64,000 bases of DNA, taken from positions 4,143-68,142 of the forward strand of contig CAYZYP010000001.1 in NCBI GenBank assembly GCA_964482695.1, in the 5' to 3' direction. The stretch comes from an uncultured Gammaproteobacteria bacterium (GTDB lineage: Bacteria; Patescibacteriota; Patescibacteriia; Magasanikbacterales; GWA2-37-8). The notes under the pieces are model-generated. The model saw only the letters and a program-made list of their open reading frames with translations, did no database searches and was not told the origin of the DNA. The position numbers were made by a program, and so were the translations under genes. Positions 5,949-47,171 of the stretch are shown one piece after another; the first letter of the stretch is position 1; the number at the start of each line of letters is the position of its first letter.

Positions 5949-8465
5949 TTGATTTCATGTTTTATGGAAGACAAAATCATCATCAAAGGCGCCAGAGTGC
6001 ATAATTTAAAAAATATCTCTCTGGAAATACCAAAGAATAAAATAACGGTAATTACCGGCGTTTCTGGTAGTGGTAAATCCAGTCTAGCTTTTGATACTAT
6101 TTTTGCCGAAGGGCAGAGAAGATATATAGAATCATTATCTCCGTATGCCAGGCAATTTTTGGGTCAAATGGAAAGGGCTGATGTTGATGAAATAAATGGT
6201 TTATCACCAGCCATTGCCATAGACCAAAAAGCCCTTAGCCACAACCCACGTTCCACTGTTGGCACCCTAACCGAAATTTACGATTATTTACGTGTTTTGT
6301 ACGCCCGCTTAGGCGAGGTATATTGCCCGCAGTGTGATTTAAAAATAGAAAAATTAACAACCGACGAGATGTTGGATATAGTTATTGGCCAAGCCGAAGA
6401 ATTAGACGAAAAAATAGTCACCATATTTTCACCAGTCGTGCGCGAGCGCAAAGGGGAGTATTACCAATTGTTATATGATTTCTTAAATCTGGGATTTGAT
6501 CAAGCGCGCGTTGATGGGGCGTTAGTTTCTTTGCATGAAAGAATAAACTTAGCTCGTTACAAAAAACATAATATTGAAATAATGATTGATAGAGTAATGA
6601 TAAGTGATGTCAGCCGGTTAAACGAAGCCATAGAAAGTGCTTTACATCATAGCAAAGGATTGGTATTGGCAGTGTTTAAAGAAAAATCAAAAGAACCAAT
6701 AGAACGGTTATTATCCAGTAACTGGTCGTGCTCTAACGATGGTTTTTCTTTTCCCGAAATAGAGCCAAGACTTTTTTCTTTTAATAGTCCGGCTGGCGCT
6801 TGCCCGGATTGTCATGGTTTAGGGAAAGTAGAAATGTTTTCCAAAGAAATTTGTCCGGTTTGCCAAGGCAAGCGTTTAAAGCCAGAAGCCCTATCGGTAA
6901 AAATTAAGCATAAAAATATTTTTGAGGTTGCTTCCATGACCATAGAAGACATGTATACATTTTTTATTCAATACGAAATCAAAATGACTGAACGCCAAAA
7001 ATTAATAGCCCATCACGCCACTCGCGAAATTACCGACCGTTTAAAATTTTTACTGGAAGTTGGTTTGGACTATATTACCCTTTCTCGCGAATCTCATACT
7101 TTGTCTGGTGGTGAAGCCCAACGCATCAGATTATCTTCACAAATAGGTTCGCGTTTATCAAACACGTTATATGTTTTAGATGAACCTACCATTGGTTTAC
7201 ATGAACGCGACACCGATCGCTTGATAAAAACTTTAAAATCTTTACGCGATGCCAATAATACAGTTATCGTAGTTGAGCATGATGAACGGACGATTAAAGA
7301 ATCAGATTATTTGGTTGACCTTGGCCCCTTGGCCGGCGAACATGGGGGAGAGGTGGTGTACGTAGGGACAGGTCTAGACCTGTCCCTACAAGGCGATAAA
7401 TCTCGATCTCTTACCATCCAATACCTCACCAACCAACGCCAAGTAGAGGTGCCTAAAAAACGTCGCTGGAAAGAGACCGAAGAATTGTCTATTATCGGCG
7501 CGCGAATAAATAATCTTAAAAACATCAATGTTAAAATACCTTTACGCAAGTTTGTTTGTGTTTCTGGTGTTTCCGGCAGTGGTAAATCTTCGCTACTTTA
7601 TGATACTCTTTACGAAAATATTAATAGAATAAAAAGTAGATACAAAACATTGGAAGGTGCCAGTAAAATTACCGGTACTGAATATTTTGAAAAGGCAGTT
7701 ATTGTTGATCAGTCGCCAATTGGCCGCACCCCGCGTTCTAACCCAGCGACCTATACTGGCATTTTTACCCCTATTCGCGAATTTTTTGCTTCTTTAGAAG
7801 ATTCGCGTACGCGCGGCTATACTATTTCGCGCTTTTCTTTTAATGTCGCTGGCGGGCGTTGTGAAGCTTGCGAAGGCGCGGGAGCAAATTTAATAGAAAT
7901 GCATTTTTTGCCTCCCGTACTAGTGCCGTGCGAAGTTTGTCATGGCAAAAGATTTAGCCGTGAAACATTACAAGTTAAACATAAAAAGAAAAATATTGCC
8001 GATGTTTTAAAAATGACAGTTAGCGAAGCCGTTAAGTTTTTTGAACATATTTATTCTATCACTGACAAGTTAAAAGTTTTGCAAGAAGTTGGTTTGGGTT
8101 ATTTACAACTTGGCCAATCAGCCACTACTTTGTCTGGCGGCGAAGCTCAACGTATTAAGCTGGCGCGCGAATTAACTCAGCCATTAGGTCGTCGAACACT
8201 TTATTTACTCGACGAACCAACCGTTGGCTTGCACTACTTTGATATTGAAATGTTGCTGATGGTAATAAATAAATTAGTAGATAAAGGCAATTCCGTTATC
8301 ATGATAGAACACAATCTGCATATTTTAAAGTCTTGCGACTATATTATTGATCTAGGGCCCGAAGGCGGTGAAAAAGGCGGGCGAGTAGTGGCCAAGGGCA
8401 CGCCCGAAGAAGTAGGCGATAATCCTAATTCTTATACAGGGATGTATTTAAGAGAGATGTTGTAA
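5949..8465 (+). CDS. uvrA: Excinuclease ABC subunit A (UvrA), compact form (838 aa); true start probably MEDKIIIKG at ~5964
   Basis: Two ABC ATPase modules (GVSGSGKSSLAFDT..., GVSGSGKSSLLYDT...), zinc-finger cysteines, LSGGEAQRI signatures; insertion domain region replaced by short linker. Confidence 0.9.
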   Translation: MISCFMEDKIIIKGARVHNLKNISLEIPKNKITVITGVSGSGKSSLAFDTIFAEGQRRYIESLSPYARQFLGQMERADVDEINGLSPAIAIDQKALSHNPRSTVGTLTEIYDYLRVLYARLGEVYCPQCDLKIEKLTTDEMLDIVIGQAEELDEKIVTIFSPVVRERKGEYYQLLYDFLNLGFDQARVDGALVSLHERINLARYKKHNIEIMIDRVMISDVSRLNEAIESALHHSKGLVLAVFKEKSKEPIERLLSSNWSCSNDGFSFPEIEPRLFSFNSPAGACPDCHGLGKVEMFSKEICPVCQGKRLKPEALSVKIKHKNIFEVASMTIEDMYTFFIQYEIKMTERQKLIAHHATREITDRLKFLLEVGLDYITLSRESHTLSGGEAQRIRLSSQIGSRLSNTLYVLDEPTIGLHERDTDRLIKTLKSLRDANNTVIVVEHDERTIKESDYLVDLGPLAGEHGGEVVYVGTGLDLSLQGDKSRSLTIQYLTNQRQVEVPKKRRWKETEELSIIGARINNLKNINVKIPLRKFVCVSGVSGSGKSSLLYDTLYENINRIKSRYKTLEGASKITGTEYFEKAVIVDQSPIGRTPRSNPATYTGIFTPIREFFASLEDSRTRGYTISRFSFNVAGGRCEACEGAGANLIEMHFLPPVLVPCEVCHGKRFSRETLQVKHKKKNIADVLKMTVSEAVKFFEHIYSITDKLKVLQEVGLGYLQLGQSATTLSGGEAQRIKLARELTQPLGRRTLYLLDEPTVGLHYFDIEMLLMVINKLVDKGNSVIMIEHNLHILKSCDYIIDLGPEGGEKGGRVVAKGTPEEVGDNPNSYTGMYLREML
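7362..7389. repeat. 28-bp perfect palindrome gtagggacaggtctagacctgtccctac inside uvrA coding sequence, in a GC-rich patch
   Basis: Read directly; replaces the conserved EGTPEE segment at the end of UvrA ABC module I (translated VGTGLDLSLQ). Confidence 0.6.
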
Positions 8466-19590: not shown

Positions 19591-20859
19591 ATGTTAACCT
19601 TGGAATTTGATTACAATTTGCCAAAAGAATTAATTGCCCAAACACCAGCTAGCCCGCGTGATTCTTCGCGTTTGATGGTGGTTGATAGGAATAATCACGA
19701 TATTCAGCATAAACAGTTTAAGGATATTATTCAATATTTATCCAAAGGTGATCTGTTAGTTTGGAATAACACCAAAGTTTTTAAGGCGCGATTACAAGGT
19801 CGGGTTTTATTGGACGAGGAGACGGACAATATTTCTGACAGGCGAGAAAAAAAACTGGGTTTAACGGACAGGATTTTAAACATGCCGGCAATGGAGATTT
19901 TTTTGGTTCGGCCGATGGAAAATTTTGGCGTTTGGAAAGTGTTGGCTAAACCTGGTAGAAAATTACGCTTGGGGATGAAAATAGTTTTTGCCGAGGATTT
20001 TATTTGCGAAGTGATGATTAAAGAAAGCGACGGGACCATTTTGGTTCAATTCAGCGAAGACGACATGAGCGTACGGGCCAAGGCGAATAAGTATGGAAGT
20101 GTGCCTGTGCCGCCATACATTGAATTTGATAGTCGCTCTGTCATCCCGAGGAGGAGGAACGACGACGAGGGATCTCTGTCTGGACAATTGAGACAGAGAT
20201 CCCTCACTTCGTTCGGGATGACAAAAGAGTTGGCAGAACAATATCAAACCGTCTATGCTAAACACGAGGGTTCGGTGGCGGCACCTACCGCTGGCTTTCA
20301 TTTTACACCAGAATTGATAGAACAGTTAAAACAAAAAGGCGTTGAATTCGCCGAAGTAACTTTGCATGTTGGTTTGGGAACTTTTTTACCGGTTAAGACT
20401 GAAAAAGTGGAGGATCATAAAATGCATAGTGAGTGGATAGAATTAACAGCCGCTAACGCGGATAAAATAAATACAGCCAAAGCAGAAGGCAGGCGGGTTA
20501 TAGCAGTTGGTACTACAACAGTGAGGACATTGGAGGGCGTGAATTTATTTTGTCATCCCCGCGAAAGCGGGGATCCAGCCCAAAAGTTACAGACACTGGA
20601 TTCCCGCCTGCGCGGGGATGACAGTCGCGTTTATTACTTAAAACCATATACCGGCGACATTAACATTTTTATTACTCCCGGCTTCAAATTCCAGATTATA
20701 GACGCGCTAGTAACTAATTTTCACTTGCCAAAATCAACTTTAATTATGCTGGTTAGCGCGTTTGTTGGCGACACCAATTTTGTCTCGGATTGTTATCAAA
20801 AAGCGGTAGAAGCTAAATATCGCTTTTATAGTTTTGGAGATGCGATGTTGATTAAATAA
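19591..20859 (+). CDS. queA: S-adenosylmethionine:tRNA ribosyltransferase-isomerase (QueA) carrying two in-frame palindromic insertions
   Basis: MLTLEFDYNLPKELIAQTPASPRDSSRLMVV...; 422 aa vs ~340 typical. Confidence 0.85.
   Translation: MLTLEFDYNLPKELIAQTPASPRDSSRLMVVDRNNHDIQHKQFKDIIQYLSKGDLLVWNNTKVFKARLQGRVLLDEETDNISDRREKKLGLTDRILNMPAMEIFLVRPMENFGVWKVLAKPGRKLRLGMKIVFAEDFICEVMIKESDGTILVQFSEDDMSVRAKANKYGSVPVPPYIEFDSRSVIPRRRNDDEGSLSGQLRQRSLTSFGMTKELAEQYQTVYAKHEGSVAAPTAGFHFTPELIEQLKQKGVEFAEVTLHVGLGTFLPVKTEKVEDHKMHSEWIELTAANADKINTAKAEGRRVIAVGTTTVRTLEGVNLFCHPRESGDPAQKLQTLDSRLRGDDSRVYYLKPYTGDINIFITPGFKFQIIDALVTNFHLPKSTLIMLVSAFVGDTNFVSDCYQKAVEAKYRFYSFGDAMLIK
20139..20223. repeat. In-frame palindromic element 1 inside queA (outer tgtcatcccga/tcgggatgaca, inner gagggatctctgtct/agacagagatccctc)
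   Basis: Nested inverted repeats read directly; GC-rich vs flanking; translated as SVIPRRRNDDEGSLSGQLRQRSLTSFGMT. Confidence 0.7.
20551..20623. repeat. In-frame palindromic element 2 inside queA (perfect 13-bp termini tgtcatccccgcg / cgcggggatgaca)
   Basis: Termini are exact reverse complements; same terminal motif as element 1; translated LFCHPRESGDPAQKLQTLDSRLRGDD. Confidence 0.7.
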
Positions 20860-29508: not shown

Positions 29509-30570
29509 TTGATTATGGATTTCCAATTTTTAAAATATCTTGAGGATAAAAAATTTTTAATACCTTTTTTCTTATTTGTTAGTTTTTTGTTTTTATTAGC
29601 AATTAGCTACTGGTCGTATGTTTACTTTACGACCAATAAGTTTTTTTTACAGTTTAATAATAATTTGTCTAATAAACAGCCTGTTTATTTTTCTCAATTA
29701 GACGGCAGTTTGGTCACAAGTAAACAAGACCAAATACCAGAAATAGTTGGTATAATGATTGATAATCATCCAGACGCCAGGCCACAGAGCGGTTTATCAG
29801 AGGCAAGCGTGGTGTATGAAGCTTTGGTAGAAGGAGGCATGACTAGATATTTAGCGATTTACAATAAAGAACAAGTAGTAGAAAAAGTTGGCCCGGTGCG
29901 TAGCGCCAGACCATATTATATTGATTTTTTAGGAGAGTACGGACATCCAGTGTATATGTTTTGTGGCGGTTCACCACAGGCTTTGGAAGACGTAAAAAGC
30001 GTTAATTTGTTGGCTGGCAATGAAATTTATTTTGGCAGTTATTATTGGCGAGATAATGCGCTTGTCTCGCCGCATAATTTATTTACCAGCAGCAGCTTGT
30101 GGAAAAAATTATCTAGTAATTTTAATAAAAATAGCACTTCTTCTGTTTGGTCTGGTTGGCAATTTAGTAACAGTGTCACTTCCAGCAAAGATATTAAAGA
30201 TATTATTCTGTCTTTTTCATACTATTATGAAGTAGAATGGAAATACAATGAAAACAAAAATAATTACGAACGTTATATTGATAATGTTCAGCAGAAAGAT
30301 AGCGCAGGCATGGTTCTTACCGCCGATAATATATTAATACAATTTGCGCCCGTTCAATTATTAGATGAAGTTGGTCGTTTACAAATTGATACCAGCGGCG
30401 GCGGCGAAGCTAGGGTGTTAAGAAAGGGTGGCATGATATATGGCGCGTGGAAGAAAGAAAATAGCCGCACTAGATTTTATGATAAAGAAGGCCAGGAAAT
30501 ATTTTTGGTTCCAGGGAAAACTTGGGTTGAAGTATTGCCGGCAAATGCAATAATTAAAGTATCTAATTAA
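29509..30570 (+). CDS. DUF3048 (YerB-like) domain protein, membrane anchored
   Basis: IMIDNHPDARPQSGLSEASVVYEALVEGGMTRYLAIY resembles DUF3048 core. Confidence 0.55.
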   Translation: MIMDFQFLKYLEDKKFLIPFFLFVSFLFLLAISYWSYVYFTTNKFFLQFNNNLSNKQPVYFSQLDGSLVTSKQDQIPEIVGIMIDNHPDARPQSGLSEASVVYEALVEGGMTRYLAIYNKEQVVEKVGPVRSARPYYIDFLGEYGHPVYMFCGGSPQALEDVKSVNLLAGNEIYFGSYYWRDNALVSPHNLFTSSSLWKKLSSNFNKNSTSSVWSGWQFSNSVTSSKDIKDIILSFSYYYEVEWKYNENKNNYERYIDNVQQKDSAGMVLTADNILIQFAPVQLLDEVGRLQIDTSGGGEARVLRKGGMIYGAWKKENSRTRFYDKEGQEIFLVPGKTWVEVLPANAIIKVSN

Positions 30571-31534
30571 ACAGGCTTATAATAACTATCCGATCTTGTC
30601 CGGCAAGATCTTTTTTTATTTTTACACTAGCCTTTGGAAGTAGGCCGTTAATTATTTTGGTTATTTTTTCAGTTTGACTAGGGTCTATTTCTAATAATAC
30701 CGTAACATTATAATATTTGATATTAGATATCAGATATTGGATTTGTTTTATCAGTTTTTTGTATAAAGATAACCCGTCATTTTTATCGGCGATAAGAGCC
30801 TGGCGTGGTTCATGCTGAATAGTTGGTGAAAAAGCGAATTGTTGGCCAGTGAGATAAGGGAGATTGGCGGTGATTATGTAATTTACGATTGCAGACCTGC
30901 CCGCCAGATGGCAGGCGGGTTGCAGATTTAAGATTTTTTCCATTGGTTGTAATAAGTCTCCATGCAAGAATTGAATTTTTGTATTATGTTTTTGAGCGTT
31001 TGTTTTAGCAACGCGTAAAGCCGGGTGCGAAACATCAATAGCATAGGCAACTATTTGTTTGTTTGTTGCTTTGTCCAGTGGTTTATTAATTGAAATAGGA
31101 ATACACCCCGATCCAGTGCCCACGTCAATAATCGCTAGTTTGTTAATCGCTAGTTGTTCACTATTAATTTGTTTAACAACCTCTTCTACCATTAGCTCTG
31201 TTTCTGGCCTGGGAATAAGCACATGCTTATTAATATAAAAGTCCAAGCCGCAGAATTCTTTGTGTTTGGTAATATAGGCTACGGGCCAGCCTTTTTTAAA
31301 CAGACGCAGATAATAAAAAAAGCGTAATTTTACTAACAAGCCTAATTTATATTCCGGGTGAGAATAGATAAATTCTTTTGATTTATTAATGGCGCGTGCG
31401 AGAAGAATAATTGCGTCCAATTGTTTATTGGGGTTAGATATATTTAAATTTTTAAGGGCGTCTTTTATAATCATAAACTTTAAATCCCGAACTCTAATTA
31501 GTTGTTTTTTTAGTGTAGAGCAAAAGTCCATCAA
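30563..31534 (-). CDS. prmC: Release factor glutamine N5-methyltransferase PrmC (HemK)-like
   Basis: GWPVAYITKHKEFCGLDFYINKHVLIPRPETE, VGTGSGCI, N(L)PY motif. Confidence 0.65.
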   Translation of the reverse strand: MMDFCSTLKKQLIRVRDLKFMIIKDALKNLNISNPNKQLDAIILLARAINKSKEFIYSHPEYKLGLLVKLRFFYYLRLFKKGWPVAYITKHKEFCGLDFYINKHVLIPRPETELMVEEVVKQINSEQLAINKLAIIDVGTGSGCIPISINKPLDKATNKQIVAYAIDVSHPALRVAKTNAQKHNTKIQFLHGDLLQPMEKILNLQPACHLAGRSAIVNYIITANLPYLTGQQFAFSPTIQHEPRQALIADKNDGLSLYKKLIKQIQYLISNIKYYNVTVLLEIDPSQTEKITKIINGLLPKASVKIKKDLAGQDRIVIISLFN

Positions 31535-37159: not shown

Positions 37160-37267
37160 TAGTCTAAGTTATATACTGATTTTTTGTTGTCAATGGAAAC
37201 CCTCGGGAGGGCGACTGAGCGGAGCGAAGGAGTTTTGACAACAGAAAATCAGTATATAACTTAGACT
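37160..37267. repeat. Long hairpin/MITE-like: 34-bp inverted repeat (tagtctaagttatatactgattttttgttgtcaa) with 1 mismatch around a 41-nt GC-rich core
   Basis: Arms 37160-37193 and 37235-37267 reverse complementary; lies between rpmE stop and prfA start. Confidence 0.6.
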
Positions 37268-37764: not shown

Positions 37765-37900
37765 TAATCACTCACCCGCCTTCGCCCCAAAGGGGCTCCG
37801 GCGGGCAAGTCAACTGGCTTGCCTGCTTAAAATATTTTCCTCCTCTAAACACTTAGAGGTAGCGGCGGGGAGGTATCCCATTTGGGATTAATTAAGGAAA
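37765..37900 (+). promoter_or_regulatory. GC-rich structured 5' leader of rpsB (candidate S2 autoregulatory leader)
   Basis: cacccgccttcgccccaaaggggctccggcgggcaagtc...ggtagcggcggggaggtatccca: multiple complementary GC segments in otherwise AT-rich DNA. Confidence 0.4.
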
Positions 37901-37906
37901 AAAAAT

Positions 37907-38683
37907 ATGGTCAAGTTACCTACACTTGTCGAGATGCTAAAAGCTGGCGTGCATTTTGGGCACCAGAAGTCGCGTTGGCATCCAAAAATGGAAAAGTTTA
38001 TTTTTACCACGCGCAATAACGTGCATATTATTGATTTAGAAAAAACCTCAGAAGAATTGAACAAAGCTTTGGATTATGTAAAAAATTTAACAAGTAGCGG
38101 CAAAGTAATATTATTTGTCGGTACTAAACACCAAGCCAAAGAATTGATTAAAAACGCCGCGACAAGTTGCGGGGCGCCATATGTAACCGAAAGATGGATT
38201 GGTGGATTGCTCACTAATTTCAACGAAGTTAAAAGACGTCTTAAAAAATATCGTGAATTAAAAGAACAAGTAGCGACAGGCGAGATAGAAAAGTATACTA
38301 AAAAAGAACAAAGCGAATTAAAAAAGAAATTAGAAAAAATGGAAAGGTATTTATCTGGTTTAATAGATCTTAAAGCCATGCCAGATGCTTTGTATATCGC
38401 AGATATGCGGGTAGACAAGACAGCTTTGAGCGAAGCTGCGCGCAAGAAAGTGCCTGTAGTGGCTGTTAGCGACAGTAACACCAATCCAGAAAAAGTTACT
38501 CGCGCTATTCCAGCCAACGACGATGCTGTTAATTCTATAAAAATTATAGTTGATTTAATAGCCGAAGCGGTAAAAGAAGGAAAATTAGAACTAGAGAAAA
38601 AACAGTTAGAAGTTTCTGTTGCCAAAAAGCCGGAAGTAGTTAGAAAAGAACGCAAGGCGCAAAAGAAAGAAGAATCTTTGTAG
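37907..38683 (+). CDS. rpsB: 30S ribosomal protein S2
   Basis: LKAGVHFGHQKSRWHPKM. Confidence 0.9.
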   Translation: MVKLPTLVEMLKAGVHFGHQKSRWHPKMEKFIFTTRNNVHIIDLEKTSEELNKALDYVKNLTSSGKVILFVGTKHQAKELIKNAATSCGAPYVTERWIGGLLTNFNEVKRRLKKYRELKEQVATGEIEKYTKKEQSELKKKLEKMERYLSGLIDLKAMPDALYIADMRVDKTALSEAARKKVPVVAVSDSNTNPEKVTRAIPANDDAVNSIKIIVDLIAEAVKEGKLELEKKQLEVSVAKKPEVVRKERKAQKKEESL

Positions 38684-44002: not shown

Positions 44003-45508
44003 ATGAAAATTTCTATCTCGTACCCACCACTAGAATCAGAAAAGGGAGTACCACTACTTTCTCAAAATCGTCAATTTCAATGGTTTAACAGTCCAACTTA
44101 TATTTATCCCATGATTCCGGCTAGCGCCGCCTCGCTTCTTAAACAAAATGGTTATGAGGTTTTTTGGGATGATGGAATTGCGGAAGGGTTAACTTATGAT
44201 GAATGGTTAAAAAGAATTATTAAAGAACAGCCAGATGTGGTAGTAATTGAAACAAAAACGCCAGTTGTTAAAAGGCATTGGCAGATTATTGATGAATTGA
44301 AGCAGAAAAGTTTAGAGATTAAAGACTGGAAATTAAAGGTTGTTTTAATGGGGGATCATGCTACGGCTATACCCGAAGAATCAATGAAAAATTGCCAGTC
44401 AGATTTTGTGATTCAAGGCGGTGATTATGATTTTATTTTGTTAAATATAGTAAACTATTTAAGCGGTAAAGAAGATTTGCGTGGTGGGGTTTGGTTTCGC
44501 GAGACCCCCCCATCTCCCCCCCTTATCAAGGGGGGGATAAAGGAGGGGTATAGATGTAAAGGTCCTTATGATCTACATAACCATTCTTTAGACGAGCTGC
44601 CAATGATTGATCGCGAGCTAACCAAATGGCAGTTATACGCTTTTAAAAATGGTAATTTTAAATATACGCCCGGTTCGTATATGATGAGCGCCAGAGATTG
44701 TTGGTGGGGAAAATGTTCATTTTGCTCTTGGACAACTCTTTTTCCAGGAGGCAATTGGCGTACGCGCTCGGCTAAAAAAGCCCTAGACGAAGTTGGGCTT
44801 TTGATTGGTCTAGGCGTTAAAGAAATTATGGAAGATAGTGGTAGTTTGCCTATTGGCGAGTGGCTAAAGGAATTTTGCCAAGGTATGATTGAAAGGGGAT
44901 ATAACAAAAAAGTGGTGATGAGTTGCAACATGCGGATAAACGGAATTAAGGATATTGAAATATGGAAATTAATGAAAAAAGCCGGATTTAGATTTGTTTT
45001 GTTTGGGTTGGAATCAGCAAACCAAAAAACTTTGGATAGGATAAATAAAAATTTAAAAGTAGAAGAGATTGAACCAGGACTTAAAATGTGCAAAGAGGCT
45101 GGTTTAGAGCCTCACATAACAGCTATGATTGGCTACCCATGGGAAAGCAAACAAGATGCCAAAAGAACCGTAGATTTGGCCAGAGATTTATTTAAAAAAG
45201 GTTATGTTGATACCCTGCAGGCAACTATTGTTATACCATACCCCGGTACGCCTTTGTATAAAGAATGTTTAGAAAATGGTTGGTTAAATTTTACTGATTA
45301 CGACCGTTTTGATCAACGCGAACAGGTGATGAAGTCGGAATTAACCACCGCGGATGTCAAAGAACTAACACAGGGGTTGTACAAATCTTTTATTACCCCC
45401 AAGTTTATTTTGCGAAAAATAATTGGCATTAAAAGCTGGAATGATGTAAAATTCTTATGGCGAGCCGGGTGGAAGGTCTTGGGACATTTGGGGGATTTTG
45501 GGAAATAA
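44003..45508 (+). CDS. B12-binding domain / radical SAM domain protein (putative sugar-modifying class B radical SAM enzyme)
   Basis: N-terminal cobalamin-binding-like Rossmann segment; Cys cluster CWWGKCSFC (Cx4Cx2C); C-terminal TIM-barrel-like region. Confidence 0.5.
   Translation: MKISISYPPLESEKGVPLLSQNRQFQWFNSPTYIYPMIPASAASLLKQNGYEVFWDDGIAEGLTYDEWLKRIIKEQPDVVVIETKTPVVKRHWQIIDELKQKSLEIKDWKLKVVLMGDHATAIPEESMKNCQSDFVIQGGDYDFILLNIVNYLSGKEDLRGGVWFRETPPSPPLIKGGIKEGYRCKGPYDLHNHSLDELPMIDRELTKWQLYAFKNGNFKYTPGSYMMSARDCWWGKCSFCSWTTLFPGGNWRTRSAKKALDEVGLLIGLGVKEIMEDSGSLPIGEWLKEFCQGMIERGYNKKVVMSCNMRINGIKDIEIWKLMKKAGFRFVLFGLESANQKTLDRINKNLKVEEIEPGLKMCKEAGLEPHITAMIGYPWESKQDAKRTVDLARDLFKKGYVDTLQATIVIPYPGTPLYKECLENGWLNFTDYDRFDQREQVMKSELTTADVKELTQGLYKSFITPKFILRKIIGIKSWNDVKFLWRAGWKVLGHLGDFGK
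44503..44549. repeat. In-frame GC-rich palindromic insert with C7/C7/G7 homopolymer runs inside the radical SAM gene
   Basis: gagaccccccc atct ccccccc ttatcaa ggggggg ataaaggagggg read directly; translated RETPPSPPLIKGGIKEG. Confidence 0.6.
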
Positions 45509-45585: not shown

Positions 45586-46206
45586 ATGAAATATCAAGAT
45601 TTTAAAAAAATCATAAATAAGCCATATTTTAGCACTTTGGATATTGTTCTCAAAGATATTAATGTATATAATTATCAATTGTCGTTGTGGCAAAAAAAGG
45701 GCTATCTTGGACACTTAAAAAGAGGACTCTATTTTTTTACTGAACAAGAAAATTTGTTTTCAATTCAAGAAATTTCTTTTTTATTGTACGATCCAAGTTA
45801 TATAAGCATGGAATCGGCGTTGAGTTATTATGGAATTATTCCTGAAATGGTGTACGCGCAAACAGCTATTTCAACAAAGACGACTCGAAAATTTTCCAAT
45901 AAATTTGGTCATTTTATATATCGCCACATTAATCCGAGATTATTTTTTGGTTACAACCCGGTTGAACTTTCGTTTGGTAAATATTTGATGGCAGATCCTG
46001 AAAAAGCGTTGCTGGATTACCTGTATCTAAATTTAGGAAAGATTAACGATGAAAATGATATAGTAGAATTAAGAATAAATTGTTTGGAATTAAAGAAAAT
46101 TATTAATATAAAGAAAATTAACGCGTATCTAAGAGAATTTAATATGCGTAAGTTAGAAAGAACAGTTAATAAATTGTTTGAGATATGCTCACATTTGGAC
46201 AATTAA
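45586..46206 (+). CDS. abiEi: AbiEi-family antitoxin/transcriptional regulator (type IV TA / abortive infection)
   Basis: LSLWQKKGYLGHLKRGLYFF and SMESALSYYGIIPE...ADPEKALLDYL resemble AbiEi N- and C-terminal domains. Confidence 0.65.
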   Translation: MKYQDFKKIINKPYFSTLDIVLKDINVYNYQLSLWQKKGYLGHLKRGLYFFTEQENLFSIQEISFLLYDPSYISMESALSYYGIIPEMVYAQTAISTKTTRKFSNKFGHFIYRHINPRLFFGYNPVELSFGKYLMADPEKALLDYLYLNLGKINDENDIVELRINCLELKKIINIKKINAYLREFNMRKLERTVNKLFEICSHLDN

Positions 46207-46967
46207 AAAGATATTATCCAGACAGCGTAAATATTCCGTCAAAAAATTTATTGGTGGAATATTTGCAATATGAAATTCTTGATTCATTGTATAAACAAAA
46301 AGAAAGCGCGTATTTGAGCTTTATTGGTGGAACCGCGATTCGTATCGTGTATGGAGGTAATCGTTTTTCCGAAGATTTGGATTTTGATAATTTTGGTTTA
46401 TCTTTTGCTGATTTTCAACATTTGATGGATAAAATTGTGGAAGACATGAAAATCAAGGGTTTTTTAATGGACGCGCGCTTAGTGCAAAAAGGCGCGTATC
46501 ATTGTTATATTCGTTTTCCACATATTCTGCAAGCCGCTAATTTGAGCGATATAAAAGGGGAAAAAATATTGGTAAGGGTAGATGCTACGTGGAAAGAAAA
46601 AATATTAGAGCCTGTTTTTTATACGCTAAATAGGTTTGATATTTATCGCAATATACTTGTAAATCCGGAAAATATAATTCTTTCTCAAAAAATGATGGCG
46701 ATACTTGGTCGTAAAAGAGAAAAAGGGCGAGATTTTTTTGATGTCAGCTATTTGTACGGGATGACAAAACCAGACTTTTCATATATTGAAAAGATTATGG
46801 GTATTTCTAGAGAGGAATTTGTTGCTAACTTGCTCGCGAAATGCGACGCGTTGGATTTTAAATCTCTCGCGAAAGATGTTGAACCATTTTTAATGAACCC
46901 AGAACAAATTAGCAGGGTATTGGGTTTTAGAGAATTTATTTACGAAATGAGTAAGAGAGGTATTTAA
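46185..46967 (+). CDS. abiEii: AbiEii/AbiGii-family nucleotidyltransferase toxin
   Basis: LSFIGGTAIRIVYGGNRFSEDLDFD matches AbiEii NTase motif; 22-nt overlap with abiEi. Confidence 0.7.
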   Translation: MLTFGQLKRYYPDSVNIPSKNLLVEYLQYEILDSLYKQKESAYLSFIGGTAIRIVYGGNRFSEDLDFDNFGLSFADFQHLMDKIVEDMKIKGFLMDARLVQKGAYHCYIRFPHILQAANLSDIKGEKILVRVDATWKEKILEPVFYTLNRFDIYRNILVNPENIILSQKMMAILGRKREKGRDFFDVSYLYGMTKPDFSYIEKIMGISREEFVANLLAKCDALDFKSLAKDVEPFLMNPEQISRVLGFREFIYEMSKRGI

Positions 46968-47163: not shown

Positions 47164-47171
47164 CCCCCCCC
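47164..47171. repeat. Poly-C tract (C8) immediately upstream of GT2 gene start
   Basis: tcg cccccccc tg read directly; lies between an upstream ATG (47150) and the likely start ATG (47189). Confidence 0.6.

Follow-up and report, generated by a model that had tools for sequence, protein, structure and literature searches.

A nested C7/G7 palindrome inside a Patescibacteria radical-SAM gene: probable member of a dispersed, coding-compatible repeat family

Palindromic repeats lying in-frame within unrelated housekeeping genes, whose orthologues are free of the insert, have been described as Rickettsia palindromic elements (RPEs; Ogata et al. 2000, as summarised in PMC10969869), and they contribute a peptide segment that the protein structure can accommodate. 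Repetitive extragenic palindromes (REPs), which carry a GTAG or a CGTC tag (PMC3733652), and REPINs (PMC3116915) are short imperfect palindromes of 20-40 nt. The GC clusters of yeast mitochondria, which include in-frame insertions in var1 and the 'byp' elements, are short GC-rich palindromes regarded as mobile, and in Magnusiomyces mitochondria the byp elements are bypassed during translation (PMC8811140). Here, we consider a 46-nt nested palindrome, which we call the C7/G7 element, located within a radical S-adenosylmethionine (radical-SAM) gene in a 64-kb stretch of Patescibacteria DNA (the window, i.e. the 64,000 nt of contig CAYZYP010000001.1, assembly GCA_964482695.1, that were analyzed). 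Our results suggest that this palindrome, at 44504-44549, is most likely one copy of a dispersed nested-palindrome repeat family, selfish in nature and compatible with coding. The host gene and the parts of the element are the following:

44003-45508, plus strand: host gene, a B12-binding-fold radical-SAM enzyme of 501 aa (ORF list and Pfam)
44504-44549, plus strand: whole element, a 46-nt nested palindrome, A-C7-ATCT-C7-TTATCAA-G7-ATAAA-GGAGGGG-T, encoding T168-G182 and the first base of Y183
44504, plus strand: flanking A at the start of the element, read from the sequence
44505-44511, plus strand: outer left arm C7, read from the sequence; predicted to pair with 44542-44548
44512-44515, plus strand: left internal-loop spacer ATCT (AT instead in most family copies)
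44516-44522, plus strand: inner left arm C7, from the sequence and the predicted fold
44523-44529, plus strand: loop TTATCAA, in which TT/AA lengthen the stem and leave a 3-nt apical loop (family consensus TT-NNN-AA)
44530-44536, plus strand: inner right arm G7, from the sequence and the predicted fold
44537-44541, plus strand: right internal-loop spacer ATAAA (family range 2-6 nt, rich in purines)
44542-44548, plus strand: outer right arm GGAGGGG (G7 interrupted by a single A), also present in the sibling copy L187
44549, plus strand: terminal T, read from the sequence

Codons 168-182 of the 501-aa open reading frame (ORF) translate the element as TPPSPPLIKGGIKEG, and its GC content of about 70% contrasts with the 28-41% of the window background. 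The runs are unusual in combination and not singly, because the window has about as many lone C6 or G6 runs as chance predicts (14 vs 12.6 expected) whereas the paired pattern C6-N3-30-G6 occurs a single time in the 64 kb and in 0 of 100 dinucleotide-preserving shuffles. With both RNA and DNA folding parameters a nested hairpin is predicted, in which the inner stem is C7TT/AAG7 and the outer stem, with one mismatch, is ACCCCCCC/GGAGGGGT. The predicted RNA folding energy is -32.7 kcal/mol for the 76-nt region that was folded; the z-score against shuffles is just -1.8 to -2.2, a modest value due to the fact that the shuffles retain the composition of the G/C runs. The C7/C7/G7 runs, the hairpin that they form, the AT-rich context and the in-frame translation had all been reported in an initial annotation made from the letters alone, and each of these descriptions holds.

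The boundaries of the element were set by a sibling copy, L187, carried by the metagenome contig Ga0209536_100103085. L187 reads ctcaCCCCCCATCTCCCCCCCTTACCAAGGGGGGGATAAAGGAGGGGTtatc and the window gagaCCCCCCCATCTCCCCCCCTTATCAAGGGGGGGATAAAGGAGGGGTatag; the two differ by one C in the first run and by one loop base. Their identity spans CCCCCCATCTCCCCCCCTTA[C/T]CAAGGGGGGGATAAAGGAGGGGT, and outside of it the flanks are unrelated. The sibling lies in a Ser/Thr protein-kinase ORF, where it is read in the same frame as in the window and translated HPPSPPLTKGGIKEG. Since L187 also has the right arm ATAAAGGAGGGGT, this arm is part of the element and not of the host, and the element therefore covers 46 nt, 44504-44549. 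A contiguous 36-nt insert at 44504-44539, with a host-derived outer G-run, had been proposed from the protein alignment and an AlphaFold model, and was overturned by L187.

Taken together, the scans recovered over 250 related copies, which come from Patescibacteria, Nitrospirae, Cyanobacteria, Poribacteria and viral contigs. When one genome per GTDB species was scanned with the inner hairpin CCCCCTTATCAAGGGGG, at least 120 loci were recovered in Cyanobacteria, Poribacteria, Nitrospirae, about 8 Patescibacteria (Saccharibacteria, Doudnabacteria, Paceibacterota and unclassified ones among the matches listed) and others, and many of the matches listed also bear an outer C-run, an outer G-run or both, neither being part of the query pattern. 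At least 120 metagenome loci were likewise recovered using the left half of the window element as query, with the apical triplet free. For viral contigs, the three-run unit C6+-N2-6-C6+-TTNNNAA-G6+ yielded 49 stretches with variable apical triplets, while the exact 21-mer C7-TTATCAA-G7 gave 0 matches there and the 17-mer gave 4. The initial annotation had proposed a search for other C7-N-G7 hairpins in the genome: such hairpins do recur, in these other genomes and contigs, but there is no further one in the 64-kb window.

The family statistics are drawn from 122 distinct metagenome copies among the matches listed, and those on the flanks from 100 copies. The full four-run nested architecture was present in 104 of the 122, although the query needed three runs only, and the window copy has the same succession of C-run, spacer, C-run, TT-NNN-AA loop, G-run, spacer and G-run. 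The consensus is YA-C7-AT-C7-TT-NNN-AA-G7-N2-6-G7-TR, with a core of 37-46 nt, a modal core of 41 nt (C7-AT-C7-TTNNNAA-G7-CGAA-G7) and run lengths ranging from 6 to 9. At the ends, A precedes the first C-run (position -1) in 83% of the copies and T follows the last G-run (+1) in 78%; the base is a pyrimidine (C or T) at -2 in 78% and a purine (A or G) at +2 in 67%, and the flanks are random beyond -2/+2. The window copy has the conserved ends (gagA/C7...GGGG/Tat). Comparison with Rfam assigned the element to no family, either at five loci (E <= 1) or across the window (gathering thresholds), and no description of a C7/G7 repeat family was found in the literature searched, which did not cover the published cyanobacterial small dispersed repeats; the family is thus apparently both widespread and undescribed.

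On the Microcystis ichthyoblabe chromosome (L005 6520-6960) and at other Microcystis loci, we noticed tandem arrays with a 37-nt period, where the unit C6-TTATCAA-G6-ACTAA-G6-ATCGGCA represents the same hairpin family amplified head-to-tail. A GC-rich viral contig, IMGVR_UViG_3300032160_001195 (L172 4070-11352), holds C7-TG-C7-TTGCGAA-G7 ten times within 15 kb; the copies occupy both strands, and three are exactly 198 nt apart.

About two thirds of the listed metagenome copies are in-frame within ORFs, and 79 of the 122 are flanked on both sides by 60 or more stop-free codons, a lower bound as many contigs are short. Ten metagenome host ORFs compared to Pfam correspond to PurL (two loci, one of them with two copies), ValRS, a P-type ATPase, an Eco57I-type methylase, Cas10/Cmr2, a tetratricopeptide repeat (TPR) protein, PriA, a protein kinase and GuaA. 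The hosts listed from the genome scan are PolA, KsgA and a Wzy-type ligase, all in Patescibacteria, and a cyanobacterial nonribosomal peptide synthetase. The PolA copy (L024) lies in the linker joining the exonuclease and polymerase domains, and the KsgA and GuaA copies are apparent insertions relative to solved structures of homologues. Copies are thus found at many non-homologous sites, and near-identical ones, such as L187 and the window element, occur in unrelated genes. Across an element, four to six of the six reading frames are stop-free. Family copies are read in all frames and in both orientations, with a bias on the coding strand of 54:17 in favor of C-runs first and a preference for the PPHPPLxKGG frame. 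Since all frames and both orientations are used, the conserved entity is the DNA palindrome and not a peptide motif.

The host protein matches Radical_SAM in Pfam at 6e-15 and the B12-binding domain at 6e-5, the latter under its gathering score. Its best NCBIfam matches, HpnJ and BchE, are both far under the cut-offs, and its structural matches in Foldseek are AprD4, MgmA, OxsB and TsrM; its homologues are named Patescibacteria, Falkowbacteria or Moranbacteria. The CX4CX2C cluster motif is intact (C233, C238, C241) and, in the homologue alignment, all invariant columns are kept, radical-SAM cysteines included. In an alignment of 42 homologues, TPPSPPLIKGGIKEG is found at the insert site in the window protein alone, and among 120 listed homologues the insert appears in the window's own protein only. 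The closest orthologues, P0002 and P0003 (82% identity; loci L002 and L003), read W-Y-R-[RE]-[DN]-G-E-I-K-[CN]-[RS]-G at the site, where the window protein has WFRETPPSPPLIKGGIKEGYRCKG, i.e. W-F-R-E-TPPSPPLIKGGIKEG-Y-R-C-K-G, a net gain of 12 codons. In the comparison with orthologues that the initial annotation had recommended, the insert is missing from these two orthologues and from 40 other aligned homologues. The loop at this site is hypervariable, and other homologues have unrelated inserts there.

The AlphaFold2 model built from the alignment is confident (predicted local distance difference test, pLDDT, 87; predicted TM-score, pTM, 0.88) and has a sole internal segment with pLDDT <50, residues 171-180, which falls between strands 163-166 and 183-185. 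As this low-confidence segment sits between strands, and as the cysteines and invariant columns are intact, the insert is, according to the model, a surface loop where a beta-hairpin turns, between the B12-like domain and radical-SAM core. This Pro/Gly-rich loop is probably disordered, and neutral or nearly so.

How does this element compare with the systems mentioned above? The C7/G7 family appears to behave in a manner analogous to RPEs, intragenic REPs and yeast mitochondrial GC clusters. The window element shares with RPEs the in-frame insertion that RPEs make in unrelated ORFs, at what looks like a tolerated surface segment. However, RPEs measure about 100-150 bp, are found in Rickettsia and relatives only, and have a conserved peptide in one frame, whereas the C7/G7 elements are 41-46 nt long, have homopolymer stems, are read in all frames and both orientations, and occur in several phyla and in viral contigs. 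With its 46 nt and its Patescibacteria host, the window copy is set apart from the defined RPE families of Rickettsiales.

Like REPs, which are presumed to be mobilised as single-strand hairpins, the C7/G7 family shows no target-site duplication; moreover, some REPs are intragenic, notably in replication and repair genes (PMC3733652). It differs by its homopolymer stems and by its ends: the window flanks are GAGA/CCCCCCC and GGGGT/ATAG and the family ends YA and TR, with neither a GTAG nor a CGTC tag. Furthermore, most REPs are extragenic, with tens to hundreds of copies per genome, often as inverted pairs, whereas most C7/G7 copies are intragenic (about two thirds of those listed) and the window has one copy in 64 kb. 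As with the mitochondrial GC clusters, a GC-rich palindrome is present in an AT-rich genome and is optionally in-frame in a protein gene. This likeness is an analogy only: GC clusters are organellar and fungal, they have AG/TAG terminal repeats read as target duplications, and some are bypassed in translation (PMC8811140). [quoted passage not shown]

The host gene has a net gain of 36 nt for an element of 46 nt, and about 10 nt of host sequence are consequently missing. They probably correspond to the N-G-E codons and one base, which are present in all orthologues. The element would thus have inserted into the radical-SAM gene in the lineage of the window, and this insertion would have survived only with a frame-restoring loss of about 10 nt of host sequence (+36 nt net), since 46 nt is not a multiple of three. 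Once in place, the element would be translated as a disordered Pro/Gly-rich surface loop. It could persist in genes as selfish DNA, because four to six of its six frames are stop-free and because the C and G runs encode Pro and Gly, which are loop-friendly. A scan with the 22-nt upstream flank gave 0 matches in the metagenome collection, from which the window's own contig is absent.

How could such an element move? Flanking identical k-mers of at least 3 nt, the mark of a target-site duplication, are at chance level in the 100 family copies, and TA...TA flanks are found in 22 of the 100 vs 12 expected. A hairpin-recognising enzyme of single-strand DNA, acting in trans in the way suggested for REP/RAYT and IS200/IS605, is a speculative candidate taken by analogy from these systems. 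It would fit best, because target-site duplications are absent, only the YA/TR ends are conserved and the single-strand hairpin is stable.

Several points weigh against a dispersed selfish family. The left half of the consensus is largely imposed by the search patterns, which prescribed neither a fourth run nor A/T ends nor an intragenic location. The taxon labels are those of records of metagenome-assembled genomes (MAGs), in which mis-binned contigs are possible. The window contains one copy only and so shows no multiplication within its genome. No mobilising gene was identified, the Pfam-matched genes at 34-55 kb including no transposase and no search having been made for an IS with C7/G7 ends. 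No close strain yielded an empty-site allele; the junction and the 10-nt loss rest on orthologues that are 82% identical. Lastly, the presumed neutrality of the loop rests on a model.

A broader proposal can be made, namely that these copies form an undescribed, cross-phylum class of coding-compatible mobile hairpins of about 45 nt, which would spread horizontally, prefer genes, essential ones included, and be moved by an enzyme recognising the hairpin or an alternative structure. We put it forward tentatively and would sooner expect it to fail than to hold. Carriage of C7/G7 elements by phages is possible, as copies occur in viral contigs.

The runs could alternatively form a nucleic-acid structure selected for its action in place, be it a ribosome-pausing hairpin together with PP-x-PP, a translational bypass, or a hairpin, G-quadruplex or i-motif acting as a replication or transcription switch. 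The stability of the predicted hairpin (-32.7 kcal/mol), the coding-strand orientation bias (54:17) and the position of the element at a domain boundary, which recurs in inter-domain linkers such as that of PolA (L024), would be in keeping with such a role, and bypass of GC clusters in translation has been documented (PMC8811140). However, bypass is unnecessary for an element that is open in-frame. The G7-N4-G7 half of the family, read off the consensus, matches the quadruplex motif G3N1G3N4G3N1G3, but the window copy has three G3 tracts only and therefore fails the canonical motif. Moreover, the host sites are diverse and extend beyond domain boundaries, and there is no Rfam match. We thus regard a structure selected in place as unlikely.

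The initial annotation had favored phase variation: slippage in the C7/C7/G7 runs would shift the frame and toggle a glycan-modifying radical-SAM enzyme. As in the poly-G/C contingency loci of Neisseria, Haemophilus, Campylobacter and Helicobacter, G/C homopolymers, here three of 7 nt, lie within an ORF of a surface-glycan cluster; this assignment of the locus was correct, since the genes around the host encode glycosyltransferases, sugar epimerases, DegT aminotransferases and a Wzx-like flippase. The run lengths of 6 to 9 among family copies further indicate that slippage occurs over evolutionary time. However, the tracts are short, 7 nt being at or below the lengths of established G/C switches, and they make up the arms of a conserved palindrome. 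Four assemblies made independently from different samples (JGI 3300009296, ERZ909578 from SRR2177954, ERZ909575 from SRR2177951, and Logan SRR5855239) contain an identical protein, with identical C7/C7/G7 lengths and 0-1 substitutions over 4-21 kb; the JGI contig Ga0103681_1000184 is identical to the window across 21.4 kb. The length heterogeneity to be sought in population data was thus not seen among these four assemblies, although the look-up relied on an exact protein match, which is biased to in-frame alleles and would miss frameshifted ones. With the N-terminal 167 aa as query, no near-identical truncated product was found in a collection of 5.8 billion proteins, where the best match was 79% identical. 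Finally, the same runs sit in essential genes, among them ValRS, GuaA, PurL, PriA, PolA and KsgA, where an on/off switch would be senseless, and they are therefore a property of the element and not an adaptation of the radical-SAM gene. Phase variation of this gene is in our view improbable, and the C7 and G7 runs are most simply understood as the stems of the element. By contrast, the alternative that the initial annotation had named second, an in-frame palindromic element, is borne out by the dispersed family and by the near-identical sibling L187 in an unrelated gene.

A C8 tract at 47164-47171, 17 nt 5' of the ATG (47189) of a family-2 glycosyltransferase, is by its position a more classical phase-variation candidate than the C7/G7 runs, but it does not vary in the three further assemblies covering it. 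We also noticed short N-terminal radical-SAM fragments of 132-178 aa (P0185, P0188, P0196 and P0228) on contigs of 150-370 kb from other lineages. Three of them (P0185, P0188 and P0228) end close to the same variable linker, and these fragments may be split or frameshifted genes. Downstream of the radical-SAM gene, an AbiEi-like antitoxin and AbiEii toxin pair (45586-46967) separates it from the next glycosyltransferase, and the orthologous loci L002 and L003 have a different gene directly after it.

The palindrome could also have arisen locally, unrelated to sequences elsewhere, through small duplications and template-switch (fold-back) copying of a G-rich ancestral GGGGAGATAAAG. The orthologues do have GGG GAG ATA AAG at the site, which resembles GGGGGGGATAAAG of the window, and a net gain of 36 nt for a 46-nt palindrome would suit a local rearrangement. 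Yet L187 has the whole 43-46 nt, ATAAAGGAGGGGT included, in an unrelated gene and organism, with 13 of those bases outside the search pattern, and its flanks show neither a chimera nor a transferred piece of the radical-SAM gene. Hundreds more copies with the four-run architecture also argue against a local origin, which we consider very unlikely. That the element is a sequencing or assembly artefact, for instance poly-G/poly-C read artefacts joined into a contig, is scarcely conceivable even though homopolymer runs are error-prone in sequencing, as the four assemblies, obtained from different runs and assemblers, agree on it base for base, the frame is kept and the element is present in hundreds of unrelated contigs.

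If 44504-44549 is a copy of a dispersed selfish repeat, as we think likely, the phase-variation annotation of the radical-SAM gene is to be removed as unsupported, and its Pro/Gly loop would be explained as passenger DNA. Should the same be true in a full census, the family would offer a tractable system for the movement of very small repeats without target duplication and a route to studying how proteins gain loop insertions. It would also bear on the tolerance of several families of intragenic GC-rich palindromes in the reduced genomes of the candidate phyla radiation (CPR), and serve as an annotation warning, since in MAGs such runs lead to called frameshifts, to genes split in two and to spurious hypothetical proteins. 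If the mobile-hairpin class proved real, no smaller in-frame selfish element would be known, and the proteins of uncultivated bacteria would have in it a general supply of Pro/Gly-rich loop insertions.

Other GC-rich palindromes, of sequence families different from that of the C7/G7 element, are found in-frame in genes of the window. In QueA (ORF 19591-20859), a 71-nt GC-rich double palindrome at 20552-20622, GTCATCCCCGCGAAAGCGGGGATCCAG ... CTGGATTCCCGCCTGCGCGGGGATGAC, is translated as CHPRESGDPAQKLQTLDSRLRGDD; it is an insertion relative to the T. maritima QueA (PDB 1VKY), and this QueA bears inserts at two more places, around aa 71-95 and 179-214. A PrmC-like methyltransferase (ORF 30563-31534, minus strand) contains at 30889-30926 the palindrome TTGCAGACCTGCCCGCCAGATGGCAGGCGGGTTGCAGA, read as LQPACHLAGRSA. 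UvrA (ORF 5949-8465) carries at 7362-7389 a perfect 28-nt palindrome, GTAGGGACAGGTCTAGACCTGTCCCTAC, in-frame (VGTGLDLSLQ), which starts with GTAG, the REP tag. The orthologous locus L003 has at 1687-1790 yet another GC-rich palindrome, CCGTCAAAGGCG...CGCCTTTGGCGG, with a 14-bp stem and translated in-frame as SSVKGGSPAIGGQSAFGGK; it lies at another variable loop, where the radical-SAM gene of the window has no insert. These in-frame palindromes of the window and of L003 indicate that the genome tolerates such inserts, and intragenic palindromes seem generally characteristic of these genomes. Outside genes, a long inverted repeat at 37161-37267 is intergenic, with AT-rich arms of at least 23 nt (AGTCTAAGTTATATACTGATTTT...) and a GC-rich centre, GGAAACCCTCGGGAGGGCGACTGAGCGGAGCGAAGGAG, and a GC-rich palindrome, CCCGCCTTCGCCCCAAAGGGGCTCCGGCGGGCAAG, lies at 37775-37809 in the leader region of rpsB (ORF at 37907).

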